Below, in pieces: positions 29,744-58,238 of a stretch of 64,000 bases of DNA (within the stretch, counting starts at the first letter, position 1; every line of letters starts with the position of its first letter). The stretch comes from Phycisphaerales bacterium (GTDB taxonomy: Bacteria > Planctomycetota > Phycisphaerae > UBA1845), in assembly GCA_020639095.1 (NCBI GenBank), contig JACKHH010000005.1, positions 56,574 through 120,573 of the forward strand, written 5' to 3'. Under the pieces are notes generated by a model. It saw only the letters and a program-made list of their open reading frames with translations. It did no database searches and was not told where the DNA came from. A program made the translations under genes and the position numbers.

Positions 29744-30569
29744 CTTGCCTACTTCTTTGTGAGACACTTGATCCTCATGCGCAACAACTGCGCGGGGCAT
29801 GATACCGCGCCGCGCGAGCGTCGCCCAACAGGCGGTATCGGCGTGCCAGCCCGCGTCATCGCGCGTTGCGAATCGCCGTATTTTCAGGGGACAAATGTGA
29901 TTTATACTTGACACCTTCCTGCGTTGAGGTATATTTCCCAAACACGTCGCGTTGGGCGGCGTGCATGTGTAGTGGAGGTTGCCATAGTGGCTACCCGTCA
30001 GCTCGACATTTTCAAAAGCAGCCGGCGAAACGAATGGCTCGCGCTATCGCTGATAAGCGGTGGGCTCATGCCGTTGGATTCCGCGTGCGGAATCACGTTC
30101 GCCCATGACGGGCCTCCCGGGTAGTGTGCAATTGTTTTTTGCCCATCCACCCCGGAGGCGCTTGCGACAGCGGCCTGCGGGGTTTTTTGTTGCGCATGTC
30201 TTTCCGCGTAACCCCTGACGGTCTCTTCGGTTAGCGATCGTATTGAACCGGTTGCAGTTGGTACGCGTGTCGATTGCCGGGGCTGTTGTGTCCCGATGCG
30301 ATGCGCGGACGGAGAAGGTGCGCGCATGTGTGCCACTGCTCTTGAGCAGTGGGACATGTCACAGAGCGTCGCTGCGTATCGCGTCCACTGCTCAAGAGCT
30401 GTGGCACAGGGTACGTCTCGCTCGCATGGAGAAAAGTCAATCCGCGCACGCGTTGCGCGGCGGCCTGAAGGATATGTCGGTTGTCGTACCGGCGGTGTGC
30501 GTGGGCATCGTTCGCTCGATTTGCTCGCGTACGTTCCGCGTGACGGGGTCTGAAGCGACAACGTAGCAT

Positions 30570-30645
30570 GTGTGAGAAGCTCAATGGTCGAGCAACACGA
30601 CTTAGGATCGTGCTGGTGCGGGTTCGAATCCCGCCTCAAACACCA
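30570..30645 (+). tRNA. tRNA-like gene (76 nt, encoded CCA). Anticodon loop reads UAG (Leu), but the variable loop is short like a class-I tRNA and there is a G3:A70 mismatch. Possible pseudo-tRNA or tRNA-derived attachment site
   Basis: Manual cloverleaf: acceptor GTGTGAG/CTCAAAC with one mismatch, D-stem GCTC/GAGC, anticodon stem CACGA/TCGTG with loop CTTAGGA, 5-nt variable loop, T-arm GCGGG-TTCGAAT-CCCGC, discriminator A, CCA. Confidence 0.45.
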
Positions 30646-31439
30646 ACCCGGAGTCGTCCCCCCGCCCCGCTCAGTCAACCGGCTGGTCGAGGCGGGGGGA
30701 TGACTCGCCCGGCGAATAGCCGGGACGGCGTAAGCCGCTACCGAGCCTTGGCGGGGAGAGTGCTTCGTCGCGTCGCCGGTTGTCCCGATCGCACCGTATG
30801 GGCTGCATCATCAGCCCGTGCGCCACGACGGGCGACACCGTCGAAGCGGTTCGAGCGAACGCGGATACCGCCGAGTCAAATCGCCAATCGTGCGATCTCG
30901 CGTCAGACGGAAAGCAGACGCGAGTTCGCACGAACGGCGGTCACTGACCCGGCTTAAGCGTTCGCCCACCGCGTTCCGCGGGGCGATGCGAGAGAAGGCT
31001 CTCCTCGTCGGGCAGCGGCGGCGAACGCGTTGAGCGACATGACACTGAATCGGGAAAGCAGAATAGGGATTTACGAAATAGCAGGATGGCAAACTCCTCC
31101 CCCTCTGGGGGAGGGCAGGGTGGGGGTAGTCAGCGAAAGTGTTCTTGAGTCAAAGACTCCTCCGCCGACTCAGAAACTGCATCGGTTCACGCGAAGTCGT
31201 CGCGCTTTGCAACGGCTTCGCTTGATGCCCTCCCCTTGCCCCTCCCGGAGGGCGGGGAGTTGGACCGTCCTGGCTATGTGGGGAAAGACCAATCCTGGTC
31301 GCGAATGCAGGCAGGATGCCTGCACCACAATACAGAACCCCGGGCGTCTAGTCCGGGGCGGAACAAACAGTGACGTCTCGACGTCGGGACGCACATGAGT
31401 TTGCATGAGCCCACGCGCTCGAGAAAGGAGGTTATATCC

Positions 31440-42818: not shown

Positions 42819-42997
42819 TCCGCGGGGATTATAAGAGGACACCTGCATATCCTCAACGCGATGCTGGGACGGCTGGTGGGAGAGCGCCAAGTGTGCCACT
42901 GCTCTTGAGCAGTGGAGTCGATGGCGAGTGGGCCGCACAGATCATGACCACTGCTCAAGAGCAGTGGCACGCGGAAGCATGATCACTGGAACTGCGA

Positions 42998-44706: not shown

Positions 44707-46173
44707 TTGCCACCACACACCTACGAAATCTGGTCGCTCGTTCCGCCGGTCCTAGCCATCACGCTGGCCATCGCAACGCGCCAGGTGTTCCTCTCGCTCT
44801 TTGCGGGAATCTGGGTGGGATATCTCGTCATCGCACAGTGGAATCCCTTACTCGCCAGCGTGGAGGCGCTTGAAGCGTGCGTTGCGGTCTTCAAGGACCA
44901 CGGCAACACGTGCGTGATCCTTTTCTCCGCGATGGTTGGGTCGTTGATCGCCGGCGTGCAGCGGAGCGGGGGCGTTGACGGGTTTGTGCAGTTCGCCCAG
45001 ACGTCACGAATTGTACGCGGGCGGCGCAGTGCCGGACTGCTCGCGATGGCGGTGGGCATGGCCACCTTCATCGAGTCGAGCATCGTGTGCCTGGTGACCG
45101 GTGCGGTGGCCAGACCGATCTTCGACAAGCTGCGGATGTCACGCGAGAAGCTTGCGTACGTTTGCGACACCGTGTCCGCGCCCACGTGCGTGATGATTCC
45201 GCTGAACGGGTGGGGGGCGTTCGTGCTGGCCCAGCTTGTGGCGTCGGGGTTGGTTGATGATCCCGTGCCGCTGCTCGTCCACGCGGTGCCGCTGAACTTC
45301 TACGCCATCACCAGCCTTGTCATGCTGTTCGTCGTGCTCGTGACGGGCTGGGACATCGGGCCGATGCGCGAAGCCGAACGCCGTGCCCGCGAAGAGGGCA
45401 AACTGCTCCGCGACGGCGCCAAGCCCATGATCACCGACGAGGTGCTCGCGATGCCGCCCGAGCCCGGCGTGACGCCGCGGGCACACAATATGATTCTGCC
45501 CATCGCGGTGATGGTCGCGATGGTGCCTGTCAGCTTGTACTACACCGGCGTCACCAGTCTCGAGCCGGGCACTCCGCGCGAGTTCTGGAATATTCTGCGG
45601 GCGTGTTCCGGAAACACTTCGGTGTTCTATGCGGTGACAACTGCCGTCGTCTTCGCCGGGGCGCTCTACCGCTTGCAGGGCATCATGACGGTCAAGGAGT
45701 ATGTGGACGTTGCGATCAAGGGCGCGTCAGCGCTGGTACCGCTGGCGCTGCTGATGGTCTTCGCGTTCGCCATTGGCCACCTCTGTCGCCACGAACTGCA
45801 CACCGGTGATTACGTCGCGTCGGTGATTGGGAAAGGCATGCCCAAGTGGCTGGTGCCGGGCGCGGTGTTTGCGATCTCCTGCTTTATTGCTTTCTCCACG
45901 GGCACGAGCTTCGGCACGTTCGCGATCATGTTGTCGATCGCACTGCCCGTGGCGGACACGATCGGTGTCCGCATGGACCTGGTCGTAGCCGCTGTCCTTG
46001 GTGGCGGGGTCTTCGGCGACCACTGCTCGCCAATTTCCGACACCACTATCGTATCATCCATGGCCTCAGCATCCGACCACATCGACCACGTCAGAACACA
46101 ACTACCCTACGCACTAATGGCCGGGGGCATCGCGCTGGTTCTGTATTTATTGGCAGGAATCGCACTCGTTTAG
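44707..46173 (+). CDS. Na+/H+ antiporter NhaC-family transporter
   Basis: Polytopic membrane protein of 488 aa with NhaC-like sequence. Non-ATG (TTG) start in the track. The exact start is uncertain. Confidence 0.6.
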   Translation: MPPHTYEIWSLVPPVLAITLAIATRQVFLSLFAGIWVGYLVIAQWNPLLASVEALEACVAVFKDHGNTCVILFSAMVGSLIAGVQRSGGVDGFVQFAQTSRIVRGRRSAGLLAMAVGMATFIESSIVCLVTGAVARPIFDKLRMSREKLAYVCDTVSAPTCVMIPLNGWGAFVLAQLVASGLVDDPVPLLVHAVPLNFYAITSLVMLFVVLVTGWDIGPMREAERRAREEGKLLRDGAKPMITDEVLAMPPEPGVTPRAHNMILPIAVMVAMVPVSLYYTGVTSLEPGTPREFWNILRACSGNTSVFYAVTTAVVFAGALYRLQGIMTVKEYVDVAIKGASALVPLALLMVFAFAIGHLCRHELHTGDYVASVIGKGMPKWLVPGAVFAISCFIAFSTGTSFGTFAIMLSIALPVADTIGVRMDLVVAAVLGGGVFGDHCSPISDTTIVSSMASASDHIDHVRTQLPYALMAGGIALVLYLLAGIALV

Positions 46174-46284
46174 CGGCGACCCGAAGGGGAGCGCGTGTTT
46201 GGCGCTACCGCGTACTTTGCCACGGTCATCATTGATCAGAGGTATGACACCGTTATCGTTAGTGCGTAGTGATCATTGAACGCA

Positions 46285-47050
46285 CGCTCGCGTTCCGCTC
46301 GCCGCTAAACGTGGGTTTGTGGGGACAAGTGGCGGTCGGCGAATCAATCGAATCGGGCCACGAATGACCATTCTTGACGGCGCTTCCCCTCTTTGATTGG
46401 GTTTTGTGTTACATAGTCGATTGCGGTACGTAGTGCCGCTTCGCTGTTGAGGAACACACGCCAATGCCCGCGCGACCACATGCGTGGTGGCAGGTCACCT
46501 GAGTCTCCTCCGAATTCAGCGAGCGGGTGAACTCGCTCACGGGTGACCTGCTTTGTGGCTGCGGCTTTTGCCAGATTGATGATTTGTTCAACGCTATAGC
46601 GGTGTCGCGCGACAACCAAGTGTACGTGTTCGGGCATAATGCTGCATGCCCAGACAACCACCCCTGATTTCGCGAAGTAAGCGGCGAATCCGCGAGCAAT
46701 CGCACGCGCTTGCACGCCGGTCCAGGTGACCGGTGGATATCGCAAGGATTGCTTTGCACGAAGGCGCAGTTTGTGATCGTGCTCTTTTCCGGCTTGGGAT
46801 TGCCGCGTCCTCGCGACCTTGGCCGGCCCAAACTTTCGAAGCTCCCAGCAGCGAACGAAGTCGGACCATGACCCCCGAGGATCGTTAGGCAGCCAAAACC
46901 CGTACGCGCCAAGGATGACGTGATATCCGAGCACCATGATAAAGGACCCGCGGATACACCGTGCCACAGGCAATAGCGTTCATCGGCGCCCAGAATGGGG
47001 ACATTCTGATCGCGCCATACGCGCTCGCGTTCCGCTCGCCGCTAAACGTG
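46285..47050. mobile_element. Putative IS200/IS605-like or RAYT-associated unit: Y1 transposase gene bounded by 29-bp perfect direct repeats
   Basis: CGCTCGCGTTCCGCTCGCCGCTAAACGTG occurs at 46285-46313 and at 47022-47050. The only gene between them is the HUH transposase. A hairpin GTGCGT-(12 nt)-ACGCAC lies just left of the left copy. Confidence 0.5.
46344..46937 (-). CDS. Y1 (HUH) tyrosine transposase, IS200/IS605-family / REP-associated (RAYT-like)
   Basis: HUH motif HVHLVV and a downstream catalytic Tyr region. ATG at 46937 (MVLGYHVIL...). The track start at 46973 is a TTG. Confidence 0.7.
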   Translation of the reverse strand: MVLGYHVILGAYGFWLPNDPRGSWSDFVRCWELRKFGPAKVARTRQSQAGKEHDHKLRLRAKQSLRYPPVTWTGVQARAIARGFAAYFAKSGVVVWACSIMPEHVHLVVARHRYSVEQIINLAKAAATKQVTRERVHPLAEFGGDSGDLPPRMWSRGHWRVFLNSEAALRTAIDYVTQNPIKEGKRRQEWSFVARFD

Positions 47051-48088
47051 AGGAACGCTGGTTTGACGAATTCCCAATCCCGGCGAATCACCCGGCAGGA
47101 CTACGCCCTCTTTCAGCGTCAACCCCTCAAACGGATCCTCCGCCAGCAGCAGATGTCCGTCGATGTCGGCGTAGTCCACCAGCGATGCGATGTGCGCCGC
47201 CGGTGCAACGCCCAGCGATGTTTCCGTCATGCAGCCGAGCATGACCTGCATCTTTCGGCTTCGCGCGTCGGCGATCATGCGCAGCGCTTCGCGGATGCCA
47301 CCGCACTTGCTGAGTTTGACATTGATGCCGTCGTACACGCCGTCGAGTCGCGGCACATCGGAGGGGCGGACAGAGTCTTCATCCGCGATGAGCGGGGTGA
47401 CCGCGAGCTTGCGGGCTGAGCGCACCGCGTCGAGTTCACCGGCCTTCGTGGGCTGCTCGATGAATTCGAGTTCAAACGGCGCTACGCCCTGCATGCGTTC
47501 GATGATATCCTCCGGCGGCCAGCCGCAATTCGCATCGACGCGCAGCGTTTTGTCCGGCGCAAGCCGGCGCATCTCGGTCAGCGTTTCGATCTCCGCGTCC
47601 GTGCCCACCTTGATCTTGAGCACTTTGAAGTCAGCGGCTTGCGCAACCTTCTCGGGCAACAATTCAAGCCGGTCGATGCCGATAGTCATCGACGTTGGCG
47701 GCGTCTTCGTTGGATCGAGCCCGAGCATCTTCCATACGGGAATTCCCCGTCGCTTGCCGATCCAATCGTGCACCGCGGCATCGATGCCCGCGACCGCGGC
47801 ACGTTCATCATCAAACGCATCGAGCAAACGATCGATAATACCGTCAACGTCTTCCAAATCATCGCCAAGCATGTCGCTCGCGGACGCGACCGTCTGCTCG
47901 ATTGATTCAAGCGTGTGGCCGTAGTAGGGCACCGGGACCGCCTCGCCCATGCCGACAATGCCGTCATGTTCGAGCGTGATCGCGATGCGAACGATCTCGG
48001 TCGAGTCGGCGCGTGCCGAGCTTCCGGAACGAGCGATCCGAAACGGATAACGAAGCCGAGCAGTGATACGTTCAGTGGAGAGTTTCAT
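47042..48088 (-). CDS. Enolase-superfamily enzyme (mandelate racemase/muconate lactonizing family; dipeptide epimerase-like)
   Basis: KIKVG, RVDANCGW, FIEQP and the D/E/D metal-ligand pattern. ATG at 48088. Its 3' end abuts the right repeat of the transposase unit. Confidence 0.65.
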   Translation of the reverse strand: MKLSTERITARLRYPFRIARSGSSARADSTEIVRIAITLEHDGIVGMGEAVPVPYYGHTLESIEQTVASASDMLGDDLEDVDGIIDRLLDAFDDERAAVAGIDAAVHDWIGKRRGIPVWKMLGLDPTKTPPTSMTIGIDRLELLPEKVAQAADFKVLKIKVGTDAEIETLTEMRRLAPDKTLRVDANCGWPPEDIIERMQGVAPFELEFIEQPTKAGELDAVRSARKLAVTPLIADEDSVRPSDVPRLDGVYDGINVKLSKCGGIREALRMIADARSRKMQVMLGCMTETSLGVAPAAHIASLVDYADIDGHLLLAEDPFEGLTLKEGVVLPGDSPGLGIRQTSVPHV

Positions 48089-48126: not shown

Positions 48127-48503
48127 GGCAGGTGTGAGGCTTGTTGGTTAGGCTTGAGGCTTGAGACCTGAGGCTTGAGGAGAAGGGTACGCGTCACCGC
48201 GGGTGGACTGACAAGCTCTGCTTGTCAGTGGGACGTAGAACGAGTGGCGTCAATCGTAGAGTCCATGGACAAGCAAAGCTTGTCCATGCCACCCGACCAA
48301 TACAAATGCGCAATGAGAAGAGAATCAGAACCCCGGGCGCCAAGCCCGGAGCAAATAGCAGGAAATCTCAAGGCAACAAGAAGACGCGCCGACCGCCATC
48401 CCTACAAGCCTCAAGCCTCAAGCCTCAAGCCTCAAGCCTCAAGCCTCAAGCCTCAAGCCTCAAGCCTCAAGCCTCAAGCTTCAAGCCTCAGACCTCAAGC
48501 CTC
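48127..48503. repeat. Complex structured repeat, copy 1: inverted blocks of a 9-nt tandem repeat flanking a roughly 225-nt palindromic core
   Basis: Left block GAGGCTTGA-type units at 48127-48178. Core with palindromes CTGACAAGCTCTGCTTGTCAG (48208-48228) and CCATGGACAAGC-AAA-GCTTGTCCATG (48263-48288), plus the CCCCGGGCGCCAAGCCCGG hairpin. Right block of about 11 units of GCCTCAAGC at 48405-48503, the reverse complement of the left block. Confidence 0.8.
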
Positions 48504-48942
48504 GCCCCCCCCGGCGACGCAGTGTCACCACCGCAAGCACAACGCCCGCCCCCAGCGCATCCGCCACGAAGTCCTCAATGTCGCGATGCCTGCCCGACAG
48601 CGGTTGCAGTATCTCCGTCAGCGCGCCAAAGGCCGCGAAGATCGCCCACCAGCGCAGCGCCCACGCGCGCGTACACGTCTCACCCGCCGACCGCCGCGCG
48701 AGCGCGCCCAAGTACGCAAGGATCGCAAACGTCGTAAAGTGAACAACCAGGCCCTTTTTCGAAATGACAATCGGTGGACGCGGCACCTTCGGCGAGAGCA
48801 GCAATCCCGTCAGCGTGACCCAGTACACCGCCCACGCCGCGACGATCAGGCGATGCCAGCGAATCAACAACGGCTGGTGACCAACATCGGGCGAGTCAGT
48901 CACGCCGCGCTCCGCTCGTGGCTGGTTCTTCCTCGTAGACAA
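48481..48942 (-). CDS. VanZ-like family membrane protein
   Basis: Four TM helices and the VanZ-like pattern (LTEILQPLSGRHRDIEDFVADALG). The C-terminal codons run into the 9-mer tandem repeat. Overlaps the parA-like gene's 3' end. Confidence 0.5.
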   Translation of the reverse strand: MSTRKNQPRAERGVTDSPDVGHQPLLIRWHRLIVAAWAVYWVTLTGLLLSPKVPRPPIVISKKGLVVHFTTFAILAYLGALARRSAGETCTRAWALRWWAIFAAFGALTEILQPLSGRHRDIEDFVADALGAGVVLAVVTLRRRGGRGLRSEA

Positions 48943-50149
48943 TTGGGATGGAGCGCTTCACCGGTGCGGGCGATGCATGCGCCGGTGCGGGCGTCGGAGC
49001 GGGTTGCACCGGCTCAGCCGCTTCAATTGGTGCGGGCGCTTCGTGTTCTTCTTCGATCGCGGGTTCCGAAGTGGCCGCGACTTCTTCTACCACTTCGTCC
49101 ACTTCCGCGATCGCCTCGGCTGGTTCCGGAGTGCCAGATTCTGTCACATCATCCGGACCGAGCGCAACGCGATCACCGGCATCGAACACCGGTGTCGTAT
49201 CAGCCGGCGGTTCACTTGCTTCCGCGACAACCTCCGGCTCCTGATCCGGAGAAGTAACCTCGGCAACTTCTTCTGCCGGGGGCTCAGCTTCCGTGATCGC
49301 TTCATCCGCACCAGCGGCAGCCACCGGCCGCTTTGCCGGCGTGGCGGCGAAGACCACTTCCGCATCAACGCCAAGCACCTCAGCCGTCAGTGACGCATAA
49401 TCAATCGCGCCGTTGCTTCGCGGTGCGTACTCCGCGATGGTCATGCCGTGACTCGGGCACTCCGCCAGCTTGATGTTGCGGCGGATGATCGTGTCGAACA
49501 CCTTGGCATTCGCCCAAGGCGCATCGGTTCCACGCGACTCGTCGAGAAACGCAGCCAGATCGGCCGACACTTCGCCTGCGAGCCGCGTACCGGCTTCGTA
49601 CATGCAGAGGATGATACCGGTCAGCGATAGTTCACCGTTGATCCGATCCTTCACCAGCCGGATCGTTTCCAGCAACTTGCCCACGCCCTGGAGCGCAAGG
49701 AAGTGCGGCTGCATCGGCACGAAAACCTCGTTCATCGCCGCCAGCCCGTTGATCGTGAGCACGCCGAGCGACGGCGGGCAGTCGATCAGGATGTAGTCGT
49801 ACGCGTCGCCGTGTGCCCGCAACGCGTCGCGGAGAATCACCTCGCGACCCATTACGCTCACAAGTTCCATCTCAGCCGCCGCCAGGTCAATGTGCGAACA
49901 CACCAGCGTGAGATTTTCGCGCGCCTCAACGGCAGCGTCGGCGATGGGCACGTTGTCGGTGAGCACGTCGTAAATGCTGGGCCGGTCGGAGTCCGGTTCG
50001 AAGCCCAGGTGCATGGTGAGGTTGGCTTGCGGATCGAGGTCGATGAGCAGGCACTTCTTGCCGGTGGCTGCGAGGGCAGCCCCCACGTTGCAGCAAGAGG
50101 TCGTCTTACCCACGCCGCCTTTTTGATTGATGATCGCGATTCGTCGCAT
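48896..50149 (-). CDS. ParA/MinD-family P-loop ATPase with a roughly 165-aa acidic Pro/Glu/Ala-rich C-terminal tail
   Basis: Deviant Walker A motif INQKGGVGKTT, plus DLDPQ and LIDCPP motifs. The tail (EPPAEEVAEVTSPDQEPEVVAEASEPP...) is low-complexity. Confidence 0.8.
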   Translation of the reverse strand: MRRIAIINQKGGVGKTTSCCNVGAALAATGKKCLLIDLDPQANLTMHLGFEPDSDRPSIYDVLTDNVPIADAAVEARENLTLVCSHIDLAAAEMELVSVMGREVILRDALRAHGDAYDYILIDCPPSLGVLTINGLAAMNEVFVPMQPHFLALQGVGKLLETIRLVKDRINGELSLTGIILCMYEAGTRLAGEVSADLAAFLDESRGTDAPWANAKVFDTIIRRNIKLAECPSHGMTIAEYAPRSNGAIDYASLTAEVLGVDAEVVFAATPAKRPVAAAGADEAITEAEPPAEEVAEVTSPDQEPEVVAEASEPPADTTPVFDAGDRVALGPDDVTESGTPEPAEAIAEVDEVVEEVAATSEPAIEEEHEAPAPIEAAEPVQPAPTPAPAHASPAPVKRSIPIVYEEEPATSGARRD

Positions 50150-50351
50150 CGGTCATCCCTTACCGATTCGGGGCAGGATTTCCCAGCAGCCGGAGGGTGT
50201 CCGTAATCGAATCGACCGTCGCCGGAGATTTCGCCCAAGCTGCCTATTCTGCGAGGATCATATCGCACGCAGGCGACGAGGTGAAGGAGGAATTCGCAAG
50301 CAAGGTGCGGGGTTGTGAGTTTTGATGGTAAGACGTGCCGTGAAGGCGTGA

Positions 50352-50620
50352 GGCTTGAGACCCGAGGCTTGAGAAGTAAGAGACGCGCTGTCGCGGGCGG
50401 CACTGACAAGCTCTGCTTGTCAGTGGGGCGAAGAACGAGTGGCGTCATGTGTTGAGTCCATGGACAAGCAAAGCGCGTCCATGCCACCCGAGCTATTCGA
50501 CTATTGCGTTGGGAGGAGAATCAGAACCCCGGGCGCCAAGCCCGGGGCAATTGGCACGAAACCTCAAGGCGAAGTGAAGACGCACTGACCACAACCTACA
50601 AGCCTCAAGCCTACAACGTC
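50352..50620. repeat. Complex structured repeat, copy 2 (shorter paralogue of 48127-48503)
   Basis: Shares GTGAGGCTTGAGAC...GAGGCTTGAG, CTGACAAGCTCTGCTTGTCAG (50403-50423), GAACGAGTGGCGTCA, TCCATGGACAAGCAAAGC, GAATCAGAACCCCGGGCGCCAAGCCCGGGG, and the terminal CAAGCCTCAAGCCTACAA with copy 1. Confidence 0.8.
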
Positions 50621-50874
50621 AGAAGCGCATCGATCAGATCTTCGTCCTCGATGCCCAGGTCGTGATATGCCGCACGCTTCTCGTCTTCGGAGAGCGTATC
50701 ATCGGCTGCGATGGCTTCGAGATCGTCCAGCACATAGATCTGCCCGTTCTCGCCGGTCTCGGCATTGTCGAAGTCCGGGTTGCGGGCGGTGAATACACCG
50801 CAGCCAGTCGGCAGCAGAGCGAGCCCGCCAAGGAGGCAAAGGGTGGCCAGTCGATTCCAGGTCATGGGCTTCAT
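50611..50874 (-). CDS. Small acidic lipoprotein (about 87 aa)
   Basis: ATG at 50874 (MKPMTWNRLATLCLLGGLALLPTGCG lipobox). Acidic C-terminus. The track start at 51060 is an extension. Confidence 0.5.
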   Translation of the reverse strand: MKPMTWNRLATLCLLGGLALLPTGCGVFTARNPDFDNAETGENGQIYVLDDLEAIAADDTLSEDEKRAAYHDLGIEDEDLIDALLTL

Positions 50875-52432: not shown

Positions 52433-53065
52433 GTGAGCAAGCCGCATCGGTGGCCAATCCAAAGCGTTGCCGCAATCCTCATCCTCACGGCGATCACTAC
52501 GCCCGCAGCGGGGACCGTTCTGACTATTGAATTCGACGGAGTCATTGATTTCGTTGAGGATACACTGCCGTTCAGCGATACCATCGGGATCGGGACGCCG
52601 TTCGAGGGTAGCTACAGCTACGATTCGGATACTCCGGACAACTTCCCTAACGACCCAACCGCCGGTGGGTATTCATTTCCGAATTCTAGTATGTCATTCA
52701 AGATTGGAGATCTTGCATTCTCTACTCCCGATTTGAGAATGACGATTTGGGATATTTCACTATTCGATGTCTACGAGGTGTCGAATAGCTCGCCGTTCAG
52801 TGCTCACGGCGTCGACTGGGGATTGGCAAGGATCACCCTGCGAGACGACACCGGTACGGCGCTTGCAAGCGATGCCTTACCTGTCAACGCGCCCGACCTG
52901 GAAGACTTTGATTTCGCTAGAGCCTTGCTGCTACGCCGTATCGATCAACGCGAGTCGTCGATCAAGGGAACGGTTACATCGATAAGGCTGGTCCCTGAGC
53001 CCGGTACGCTAACATTTCTCGCTACGGGCTTGTTTCTCTGTGCGCATCGTCGAACATCGCGATAA
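52433..53065 (+). CDS. PEP-CTERM sorting-domain protein
   Basis: GTG at 52433 preceded by GGAGGA. Signal peptide. C-terminal VPEPGTLTFLATGLFLCAHRRTSR (PEP motif, TM helix, basic tail). Confidence 0.75.
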   Translation: MSKPHRWPIQSVAAILILTAITTPAAGTVLTIEFDGVIDFVEDTLPFSDTIGIGTPFEGSYSYDSDTPDNFPNDPTAGGYSFPNSSMSFKIGDLAFSTPDLRMTIWDISLFDVYEVSNSSPFSAHGVDWGLARITLRDDTGTALASDALPVNAPDLEDFDFARALLLRRIDQRESSIKGTVTSIRLVPEPGTLTFLATGLFLCAHRRTSR

Positions 53066-53393
53066 ACCAAGCACCAGACCTTGGTCCGATGGTCGTATGT
53101 TTGCATACGAAAACGGGGCAGATACGTTGTTGCAGGCCCCGAATCATCCAGGGTTTTACCGCACCAACTCGAGCATTGACCTTCGTTATTTCGGGCCGAA
53201 GGAAAAAGGGGATGCGCCTTCGTCATCGCAGGTGTGTATAATTGTCACAGGCGGAAGCGGCGATTTAGCGATTGATTTCTACATGCTCCAACGCTCGCGC
53301 GATGAGAATGAACCAGCGGTTGTCATGGAGGCAAACGCGACGTTTGCGGTTCAGGATTGATAATCGGCAGACGGAATCGGTTGGGCAATACTC

Positions 53394-54026
53394 ATGTGGC
53401 GCAGATTGAAGGCACAACCCACCATTACTCTCGCTGTAGCTTTCGCCCTCGGGCCCGGCGTTGCCCGCGCAGCGGGGGACCTAGTCGCCGTTAGATTCGA
53501 CGGTGTCTTGGATTATGTCGAGGATGGGTTGCCTTTTAGTGATGACCTGGCGCCGGGTATGCTGTTCACCGGTAGATATAGCTACGATTCGGGCGTGGCA
53601 GACAATGCCCCAGAAAACGGGTCAGTCGGTGGATATAGTTTCCCCAATCGCGCAATGTCGGTGACGGTCGGTCCGATGGATTTTGCGACGGAAGATTTGG
53701 CGATTGGAATCACTAACCATTCCGTATTGGACAATTACTCGGCGGGGAATGAATCTGATTTCGTCGCAAACGGCCTCTTGTGGCATGTAATGGCGATTAC
53801 GCTTCGTGACACGACCGCGACAGCGTTTTCCAGCGATGCGCTGCCCGTCGGCCCACCCAATCTCGACGACTTCGAGTTCGCCCGAATCTTCTTCCTTTTG
53901 CAGCCCAATCGCCTTTCCCCATCGGTGACGGGACAGCTTACATCGATAAGGTTGGTCCCTGAGCCAGGGACGCTATCGTTGCTCGTTGCGGGCTTGTTTC
54001 TCTGCGCGCATCGCCGAACACTGTGA
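53394..54026 (+). CDS. PEP-CTERM sorting-domain protein (paralogue of 52433-53065)
   Basis: Signal peptide. C-terminal VPEPGTLSLLVAGLFLCAHRRTL. About 45% identical by eye to the upstream paralogue. Confidence 0.75.
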   Translation: MWRRLKAQPTITLAVAFALGPGVARAAGDLVAVRFDGVLDYVEDGLPFSDDLAPGMLFTGRYSYDSGVADNAPENGSVGGYSFPNRAMSVTVGPMDFATEDLAIGITNHSVLDNYSAGNESDFVANGLLWHVMAITLRDTTATAFSSDALPVGPPNLDDFEFARIFFLLQPNRLSPSVTGQLTSIRLVPEPGTLSLLVAGLFLCAHRRTL

Positions 54027-54413
54027 TGGCCCAAGAGCCGGACCATGGTCCCACGATCGCCTGCTCAACTTCGAAGGGACGGGGCACCCATCGACAATAT
54101 GGCCGGCGCGCCGCGTGTTGACGGTCGTCAACGGAGCGTTGTGTTTTCCCTATGACCGCGCTGCGGCGTTGTTTTATTCACAGGGCTGCCTCAGAAGTTT
54201 CCACAGGTGACCTTGGGTTTCCGGAAGCACCTTGCGCATTAACGCGGTGATATCAGCGGATTTGCGTTGCATCTTGTTCGCGTTGCGGCTACTTTCTATT
54301 GGTTCGGCTGAGTTTCGCTCAGTCCCATAAACCCCGCCTTTGCAGTGCTGCCAGCGGGCTTGCACCAGCCAGGGATTGGCTGTTTACTTGCGTAACAGGA
54401 GGTTACAACGCCC

Positions 54414-57995: not shown

Positions 57996-58238
57996 CGAAC
58001 AACGGCTTGAACCGCCAAGACTCCAAGACGCCAAGGACAGATGGTGTCTTGGTGACGAGTGACGAGTGACGAGTGACGAAGGCGAGACGCCGGCCTGAAC
58101 TCGCGACGTGCGACTTTTGACCTTCGACTTGCAACCTTTGACTTGCAACCCGTGATCTTCGATCAGCGACTTATCACCCAACAATGTTGTTCTTGGAGCC
58201 TTGGCGCCTTGGCGGTTCAATCCCGCAGTTAATCGTCC

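Follow-up and report, generated by a model that had tools for sequence, protein, structure and literature searches.

A 64,000-nucleotide stretch of the genome of a Phycisphaerales bacterium (assembly GCA_020639095.1, contig JACKHH010000005.1, positions 56,574 to 120,573; the whole stretch is called the window here) holds two large, palindrome-rich direct repeats on either side of a VanZ-like and a ParA-like gene, and the locus raises the question of what these repeats are. An earlier reading of the same DNA, made from the letters alone (the sequence-only reading), proposed a mobile or recombinogenic cassette or a pair of structured non-coding RNAs, and a candidate phase-variation locus. The data presented here point to a different answer. 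[quoted passage not shown] Its architecture is that of inverted arrays of a slippage-prone heptamer enclosing a core of four to five hairpins. By comparison with related contigs, the copies are two separate insertions into adjacent spacers of the gene string lipoprotein, ParA-VanZ, MR_MLE, with the ancestral spacer (copy 1) or promoter (copy 2) downstream of the insertion left untouched. This corrects the reading of the locus, in that ParA and VanZ become conserved neighbours rather than cassette cargo.

That the two repeats are direct copies of one sequence, as had been noticed earlier, is borne out by block, column and core identities. Copy 1 (48130-48503, minus strand, 374 nt) lies at the 3' end of the VanZ-like gene, and copy 2 (50344-50613, minus strand, 270 nt) lies at the stop codon of a lipoprotein gene, upstream of a conserved ParA promoter region. 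These limits refine the previous ones (48127-48503 and 50352-50620) and were drawn from the alignment of the copies with each other and from the empty sites in relatives, which for copy 2 are those of contigs L003 and L023. Between the two copies, identity reaches 89% in a repeat block of 95 nt, 84% in one of 81 nt and 79% in one of 57 nt; the mean column identity is 79%, and the core is 82% identical over 208 nt. Altogether 49 of the 273 aligned columns differ, or about 18%.

The terminal repeat unit is the heptamer AGGCTTG (CAAGCCT on the other strand), to which Tandem Repeats Finder (TRF) assigns a period of 7 nt and not the 9 nt first reported. The right array of copy 1 (48405-48503, minus strand) is expanded and reads (CAAGCCT)14 on the plus strand and (AGGCTTG)14 on the coding strand (TRF: 14.1 units, 93% matches). 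The opposite arm (48130-48180, minus strand) is an imperfect array of about seven AGGCTTG units on the plus strand (TRF: 48135-48180, 6.7 units, 70% matches) and, in coding-strand terms, is separated by 45 nt from the MR_MLE start codon downstream of it. Copy 2 has 4.3 units of AGGCTTG in its left array (50344-50373) and only two CAAGCCT units in its right array (50599-50612). Judged by this difference between the copies (14 against 2 units, 6.7 against 4.3), array length evidently does change over evolutionary time. The arms of copy 1 pair best over 31 nt with 94% complementarity, through 29 Watson-Crick pairs and 2 A.C mismatches, both of which become G.U pairs on the minus strand; the perfect stem of about 45 bp described earlier was not recovered. 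The arms of copy 2 pair over about 14 nt (13 of 14 positions). Within the window, AGGCTTG arrays are confined to the two elements.

The core of copy 1 (48181-48404, minus strand, 224 nt), described from its sequence, its folds and a table of its helices, contains a hairpin with a CGCG tetraloop (48190-48201), a stem CGGGTGG/CCACCCG (48200-48206 with 48289-48295), hairpin A (48207-48229), a middle hairpin (48231-48264) and hairpin C (48264-48288), followed by a variable linker and then hairpin E. Hairpin A (CTGACAAGC-TCT-GCTTGTCAG) is exact in both copies. The same is true of CTGACAAGCTCTGCTTGTCAG, for which 0 chance matches are expected, and of the hairpin AACCCCGGGCGCCAAGCCCGG, which is found again at 31336-31356 with 3 mismatches, matching the earlier report of a recurrence near 31325-31358. 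Hairpin C (CATGGACAAGC-AAA-GCTTGTCCATG) forms an 11-bp perfect stem, CCATGGACAAGC..GCTTGTCCATG, only in copy 1. Copy 2 has GCGCGTCCATG instead, in which two uncompensated changes leave 2 positions unpaired, and the CGGGTGG/CCACCCG stem is also weakened there. Hairpin E (CCCCGGGC-GCCAA-GCCCGGGG) is perfect only in copy 2 (50527-50547, minus strand), where its 8-bp stem is terminator-like on the coding strand, and copy 1 reads GCCCGGAG. The description of the palindromes as perfect therefore holds for hairpin A in both copies, but for hairpin C only in copy 1 and for hairpin E only in copy 2. None of the hairpin motifs is expected in the window by chance, and the palindromes occur nowhere else in it.

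Both copies fold far better than shuffled sequences, in keeping with their earlier description as highly structured. Compared with dinucleotide shuffles, copy 1 gave z = -9.1 on the plus strand and -10.1 on the minus strand, copy 2 gave z = -4.4 on the minus strand, and folding with DNA parameters gave z = -9.2. The differences between the copies are clustered, with the five longest identical runs measuring 30, 26, 21, 18 and 16 nt (p = 0.002 for their sum compared with shuffled positions). The 30-nt run (48320-48349) consists of hairpin E without its last two stem positions plus the T-rich tail on the coding strand, and the 26-nt run spans hairpin A. It is therefore the hairpins, and not the linkers, that have been kept.

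A mobile cassette bracketed by repeats is hard to reconcile with the neighbourhood of the element in related genomes. The relatives used here are contigs that carry relatives of the ParA protein at 63-78% identity, which makes them distant; their loci are labelled L003, L004, L023, L025 and L074. All flanking genes are on the minus strand. The first of them in the direction of transcription is a small lipoprotein-like gene (50611-50874), whose product ends in ...EDEDLIDALLTL* and has orthologues of 84-85 aa in L003, L023, L025 and L074. It is followed by a ParA/Soj-like ATPase gene (48896-50149; Pfam AAA_31, 3.5e-59) with a long acidic, proline-rich tail, by the VanZ-like gene (48481-48942; Pfam VanZ, 3.8e-5, and NCBIfam vanZ_1), whose C-terminus has been rewritten by copy 1, and by an MR_MLE gene of the enolase superfamily (47042-48088; Pfam MR_MLE_C, 1.4e-32) with a likely ATG start at 48088. 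The list of open reading frames (ORFs) and the domain matches agree that the VanZ-like and ParA-like genes are the only ones between the copies, as the sequence-only reading had it. The order lipoprotein-ParA-VanZ-MR_MLE is kept in at least five related contigs, all without the element, and the ParA relatives (367-497 aa) have the same neighbours; smc and a 4HBT thioesterase gene usually stand divergently upstream of the gene string. Because the ParA-VanZ order is conserved without the repeats, the two genes do not form a mobile cassette; they are ordinary syntenic neighbours and not cargo. The acidic, proline-rich C-terminal tail of ParA (48896-49400) is likewise not peculiar to the source genome, as its closest relatives measure 367-497 aa, whereas the ATPase domain takes up about 260 aa, and their alignments cover 98-100% of the query.

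The idea that ParA and VanZ are carried between terminal repeats by a composite transposon, an integron-like unit or another kind of mobile cassette does draw on two features, the bracketing of two genes by direct repeats and the presence of a 9-mer, CAACGGCAG / CAACGTCAG, beyond the two outer ends. However, the right-hand outer "duplication" is conserved coding sequence from the end of the lipoprotein gene (...LTL*), and together with the conserved gene order this leaves the cassette extremely improbable. An integron attC site was also considered and rejected, as the motifs RYYYAAC ... GTTRRRY do not occur in the required order, GTTAGGC/GCCTAAC is present in copy 1 only and at the wrong end, and the element measures 270-374 nt compared with 57-141 nt for attC sites; the genes between the copies also represent conserved synteny rather than variable cassettes.

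The same synteny bears on a second possibility, namely that the repeats are centromere-like or operator DNA for the adjacent ParA, with the heptamers as iterons and the GACAAGC-N3-GCTTGTC palindromes as sites for a partition adaptor or regulator. A gene for a ParA-family ATPase does have the element on both sides, and plasmid partition sites typically contain iterated heptads and palindromes, the omega-binding heptads of pSM19035 being an example. On the other hand, the orthologous ParA loci in at least five relatives carry no such repeats, no ParB or adaptor gene is adjacent, the VanZ gene separates copy 1 from parA, and the palindromes are found nowhere else in the window. This account is accordingly very unlikely, and both the composite transposon and the parS readings were rejected on synteny.

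What the relatives show at the two sites is more consistent with insertion. The spacer between VanZ and MR_MLE measures 44 nt in L003 and 34 nt in L025, and that between the lipoprotein gene and ParA measures 172 nt in L003 and 183 nt in L023. All four of these sites (both in L003, the copy 1 site in L025 and the copy 2 site in L023) are empty with intact flanks, so that the empty sites which the earlier reading had suggested looking for do exist. Its phrase "mobile or recombinogenic" is thus partly upheld: the repeats are absent from the relatives' spacers and behave as inserted, possibly once-mobile DNA, but they are not the borders of a cassette. In L004 (7810-8331) 520 nt separate VanZ from MR_MLE, and this spacer is filled by a different tandem-repeat insertion, made of units of about 31 nt with the hairpin GTGGGCAATGCCCAC and of about 30 nt (GGCTCGGTTGCTCC...). 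On this comparison, insertions of repeats seem to recur in the spacer between VanZ and MR_MLE.

The junctions of the element were placed by base-level alignment. Copy 2 starts at the lipoprotein stop codon (...CTG ACG TTG TAG|GCTTGAGG), the TAG abutting or overlapping the first heptamer, and ends about 25 nt before AAAACTCACA, the motif that opens the ParA promoter region and that is shared with L003 and imperfect in L023. The promoter itself, a sigma-70-like TTCACC-17-TATGAT (50257-50285, minus strand), lies outside and downstream of copy 2, and its TATAAT-like box is kept in relatives (L003 and L023 in the alignment). Copy 1 starts at the ancestral VanZ stop or three to five codons before it. 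The VanZ-like protein now ends in ...LRRRGGRGLRSEA*, its last seven or so codons and its stop being supplied by the heptamer array. At its other end, copy 1 leaves 45 nt in front of the MR_MLE start codon, a remainder that matches the whole spacer length in relatives. Both copies are co-oriented with transcription and each is at the stop codon of the upstream gene. Read on the coding strand, the leading arm (GAGGCTT)n contains TGA in all three frames, so that an interrupted reading frame terminates at once; the reverse orientation is open in all three. Where the VanZ coding sequence meets the heptamer array there is also a run of eight G (coding strand, 48507-48514), a potential slippage site in the last codons of VanZ.

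These junctions also bear on phase variation, for which the variable-number tract had been proposed as a candidate. The VanZ stop falls in the first units of the array, and the array lies about 370 nt upstream of the next start codon. With the array 3' of the VanZ stop, a change in unit number would alter only the length of the stem and 3' untranslated region and would shift no reading frame or promoter spacing, so that phase variation in the classical sense is not supported. It can be proposed that the element is tolerated because it brings in its own stop codons and leaves the downstream start or promoter regions intact. If so, the locus gives an example of how a palindromic repeat may enter a tight operon harmlessly, by landing at a stop codon, carrying stops in three frames and sparing the start region downstream.

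Several features of a MITE are present here. The element has terminal inverted repeats, though its arms are tandem heptamers rather than unique terminal inverted repeats (TIRs); it is small (270-374 nt) and non-coding; and it is present here and absent from L003, L023 and L025 with intact empty sites, those relatives being distant. A small protein encoded by the core was ruled out, since six-frame translation gave no ORF that is open and conserved in both copies and the frames are disrupted differently in the two. At a distance of 1.2 kb from copy 1, an ORF (46344-46973) resembles the Y1 transposases of the REP-associated tyrosine transposase (RAYT) type (PF01797, E = 6e-5; NF047646, 49 bits, below the 80-bit cut-off). 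The region at about 48200-48295 is 71% self-complementary over some 96-100 nt, with hairpins A and C as two REP-like units.

Several results weigh against this reading. Multiple dispersed copies, which a MITE family should show, were not found: the known copies are two, 2.2 kb apart, and a motif search together with BLASTN of the core found none in the remaining 62 kb of the window, so that the copy count that had been suggested as a check gave two copies in the 64-kb window and no third, and a dispersed mobile family is undemonstrated. A scan for the 21-mer of hairpin A in one genome per species (185,579 species) found no further copy, nor did a scan of the JGI metagenomes for the 21-mer of hairpin E, and there was no match in plasmid and phage collections. 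The concatenated six-frame peptides of the core matched nothing among 5.8 billion predicted proteins. No convincing target-site duplication was detected, with only a 4-bp GCCG at copy 1, if the G-run is counted in the element, and nothing comparable at copy 2. No insertion sequence with matching heptamer ends was seen near the element, and the RAYT-like ORF is bracketed by a perfect 29-nt direct repeat of its own, CGCTCGCGTTCCGCTCGCCGCTAAACGTG (46285-46313 and 47022-47050), which is unrelated to the element. On the side of function, among the non-Watson-Crick pairs of the strand-symmetric helices, 5 read as G.U on the coding strand and 2 on the opposite one, 3 being mismatched on either strand, and 5:2 is too few to decide for a function at the RNA level. 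Tests of substitutions at paired compared with unpaired positions, made on minimum-free-energy folds of single sequences, were too unstable to count as proof of RNA structure, p ranging between 0.0007 and 0.3 with the choice of reference fold, and the U-tail of hairpin E is weak as a terminator tract.

The matches that the scans did return were not element-specific. Hairpin A was matched twice, by a chance terminator in a Prevotellaceae genome and by an isolated 25-nt hairpin in a metagenome-assembled genome (MAG) of the Phycisphaeraceae. Hairpin E was matched in JGI by three unrelated terminator-type hairpins (AACCCCGGGC..GCCCGGGGTT) on contigs of 48-57% GC, and is therefore generic and no marker of the element. 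BLASTN of the core against all the loci collected found no further copy, and in the relatives examined there were no AGGCTTG arrays at either site. The array (GAGGCTT)3 occurs in 15 contigs of IMG/VR, some with many arrays, but two shuffled-heptamer controls occur in 26 and 17 contigs; since the controls exceed it, these matches tell no more than that arrays of heptamers, whatever their sequence, are common, and they were ruled out as specific to the element.

Two observations from these searches stand apart from the element. In the Phycisphaeraceae MAG (L002, CAZVBW010000001.1, 4700-5010) the 25-nt exact match to hairpin A (CACTGACAAGCTCTGCTTGTCAGTG) is part of an intergenic series of nested hairpin domains that otherwise has no similarity to the element. 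Many viral contigs of IMG/VR (L008/L022, which is IMGVR_UViG_3300037258_000720, L014, L010/L019, L016/L020 and the controls L029-L071) contain one heptamer in several arrays scattered along the contig; the arrays of a contig mostly share one orientation, and start codons often follow them at 3-30 nt.

With two copies known, both in the same operon, in the same orientation and with none found elsewhere, a purely local origin has to be considered. Ectopic gene conversion or template switching could have copied one ancestral spacer element into the spacer next to it, perhaps starting from short heptamer arrays that already stood behind both stop codons, with no genome-wide family and no transposition. 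The inverted arrays would provide homology on both sides of the core, and heptamer arrays just behind ORF ends are common in other bacteria (PMC4692102). However, the relatives examined have AGGCTTG arrays at neither site, the divergence of about 18% between the copies implies that the event is old, and the copy count covers only 64 kb of the source genome. Local duplication is therefore regarded as a possible but doubtful account. Under the preferred reading of a MITE/REPIN-like insertion, spread might be owed to an enzyme acting in trans, or to inverted heptamer arrays that undergo gene conversion or template switching with one another.

The preservation of the hairpins raises the further question of whether they act in RNA. 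Constraint on RNA or on DNA may explain it. If co-transcribed, the arm stem and the internal hairpins, among them a GC-rich hairpin with a U-rich tail, would probably terminate the transcript, offer it for processing by an RNase III-type enzyme or stabilise its 3' end, by analogy with Correia, enterobacterial repetitive intergenic consensus (ERIC) and REP sequences. In copy 1, hairpin E and the T-rich tail on the coding strand (CUCCGGGCUUGGCGCCCGGGG-UUCUGAUUCUC; 48320-48351, minus strand) look like an intrinsic terminator, called by the scan at 48344-48332 on the minus strand. The terminator scan flagged hairpin E (8-bp GC stem plus UUCUGAUUCUC) in both copies, with 4 sites in the region, a slight excess over the 2.6 expected in shuffles. 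An alifold-based contrast of 6/138 vs 38/130 is biased by construction.

A stronger version of this idea would make the copies host-selected modules, either cis-acting RNAs that serve as intercistronic terminators, as RNase III sites or as stabilisers, or small RNAs in their own right, kept to set the relative expression of lipoprotein, ParA-VanZ and MR_MLE. The conserved hairpins and diverged linkers, the agreement of orientation with transcription, the 30-nt identical block with most of the terminator-like hairpin E and its tail, the arm mismatches that are G.U on the coding strand and an analogous foldback kept behind smc in four genomes (see below) are all in its favour. Yet the element is missing from relatives that have these genes, Rfam contains no such family, copy 2 carries two changes in hairpin C that nothing compensates and a weaker CGGGTGG/CCACCCG stem, and two sequences are too few for covariation. 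Host-selected modules are thus considered unlikely, and the earlier proposal of a pair of structured non-coding RNAs loses its footing, there being no Rfam match or homologue, hairpin C being broken without compensation and relatives with the same genes lacking the element. In the element region the best match to Rfam covariance models had E >= 0.55, far below gathering scores, so that permissive thresholds added nothing relevant, and the sole match in the window at gathering level was a tRNA (30570-30642).

The long non-coding stretch 3' of this tRNA gene (30650-31360) contains many G-rich hairpins (cctccccctctgggggagg, ccctcccggagggcgggg, gcaggcaggatgcctgc). It ends in a hairpin, CAGAACCCCGGGCG..CCGGGGC, that is like hairpin E (27 nt, 85-89% identical) and lies about 60 nt upstream of the start of a plus-strand gene.

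A second element of the same architecture as the heptamer element is present in the window behind smc. This octamer-armed foldback (58004-58223, plus strand) consists of inverted arrays, (CGCCAAGA)n/(TCTTGGCG)n by TRF, around a core, and its inverted repeat is 36 nt long and 83% complementary. It begins just past the stop codon of smc (57995), leaves 16 nt to the next ATG (58239) and contains a perfect (GTGACGA)4 at 58052-58079. A foldback of this kind is also present in the orthologous spacers between smc and 4HBT (L003, 1466-1637; L023, 1447-1586; L074, 3602-3736), ending about 20 nt before the next gene. Across the four genomes the foldbacks have a common outer stem, TTGAACC/GGTTCAA, and unit variants that are genome-specific and present in both arms, and their cores are unrelated. 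The smc foldback has no Rfam match.

A tentative generalisation, with a modest chance of being right, is that Phycisphaerales carry a so far undescribed class of tandem-repeat-armed foldbacks, with units of 7-8 nt containing CAAG. These would settle behind the stop codons of co-transcribed genes, bring their own all-frame stops and terminator or processing hairpins, and be renewed by slippage and gene conversion without a dedicated transposase; the member 3' of smc might have been domesticated across genera as an intercistronic signal in RNA or DNA. If the smc-3' foldback and the two copies are indeed processed or terminating RNA, they would give a handle on the post-transcriptional punctuation of operons in Planctomycetota, where almost nothing is known about it.

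Other repeats in the window were also recorded. Between the lipoprotein gene and smc there are two neighbouring ORFs that contain a 138-nt direct repeat (52958-53095 and 53922-54059, 79% identical). The first of these ends in a PEP-CTERM-like sorting signal (VPEPGTLTFLATGLFL), and both genes are absent from that interval in relatives. A further copy of the 29-nt repeat that brackets the RAYT-like ORF lies at 46167-46199, inverted and 82% complementary. The repeats at 47022-47050 and 46167-46199 include the TAG stops of the MR_MLE and Na+/H+ antiporter genes, and the one at 46285-46313 repeats the MR_MLE end without the gene. REPIN-like doublets at 30329-30408 and 42893-42970 consist of inverted hairpins (GTGCCACTGCTCTTGAGCAGTGG / CCACTGCTCAAGAGCAGTGGCAC) separated by 32 nt, with arms 96-100% complementary, and form a family distinct from the heptamer element. 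The lineage is evidently rich in extragenic palindromes at gene ends.

The locus links two poorly understood phenomena, the over-represented intergenic heptamer microsatellites of bacteria and MITE/REPIN-like foldback repeats, and it can be compared with described systems of both kinds. The closest described phenomenon is the convergent intergenic heptamer pairs of Xanthomonas. Genomes of that genus hold about 185 arrays of (GGGAATC)n each, 70-75 of them in convergent pairs (Rehm et al. 2015, PMC4692102), and the mean distance of these pairs from the upstream ORF is 28 nt, most of them are transcribed, and their length varies from species to species (PMC4692102). The element likewise has tandem heptamers in convergent, inverted pairs, is intergenic between co-oriented genes and follows the upstream ORF much more closely than it precedes the next start, and in both cases unit number varies between related genomes. 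It differs in having another unit, without G-tracts and so without G-quadruplex potential, and in arms that enclose a conserved 224-nt multi-hairpin core in both copies.

Like REP/REPIN-RAYT systems (PMC3116915, PMC3733652), the element places extragenic palindromes at gene 3' ends, its hairpins A and C have a common stem, GACAAGC/GCTTGTC, in an inverted arrangement reminiscent of a REP doublet, and a RAYT-like gene is near (1.2 kb, with a match below the cut-off). Unlike them, it is 3-4 times the length of a REPIN, has repeat arms and lacks a conserved GTAG/CGTC tag, CGTAG being found beside hairpins in copy 1 only (48235, 48255) and not kept in copy 2, and only two copies are known. With the Correia elements (CREE) and ERIC/NEMIS-type MITEs it has in common a small non-coding body, inverted ends around a core, and presence or absence between related genomes. 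CREE of Neisseria are cleaved or bound by RNase III when transcribed, their inverted ends forming RNA hairpins, and they measure 70-157 bp with unique 26-bp TIRs, a TA target duplication and 100-250 copies (PMC2649163). In contrast, the arms here are tandem heptamers, no target-site duplication was seen and two copies are known. By this analogy, the element would most plausibly work as CREE do, as a co-transcribed hairpin for RNase III.

More distant likenesses concern the arrays alone. The direct TAACTGA heptamer repeats of marine Beggiatoaceae, Cyanobacteria and Bacteroidetes (PMC4679880) are also intergenic tandem heptamers that contain stop codons and possibly act post-transcriptionally, but almost all of these are direct arrays without a partner, close upstream of start codons, and they enclose no core. 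Heptamer microsatellites are over-represented in bacteria, possibly through polymerase slippage (Mrazek 2007, as summarised in PMC4679880). The foldback transposons FB and Galileo of Drosophila, as portrayed in PMC3573991, also have terminal inverted repeats built of short tandem repeats, but they are eukaryotic, kilobase-scale and have known transposases. A MITE of Porphyromonas gingivalis that bears a minisatellite, in the account of PMC4596501, also has a variable tandem array, but there the minisatellite is internal and does not form the TIR. Compared with all of these known systems, what sets the element apart is the combination of heptamer-array arms with a conserved multi-hairpin core.

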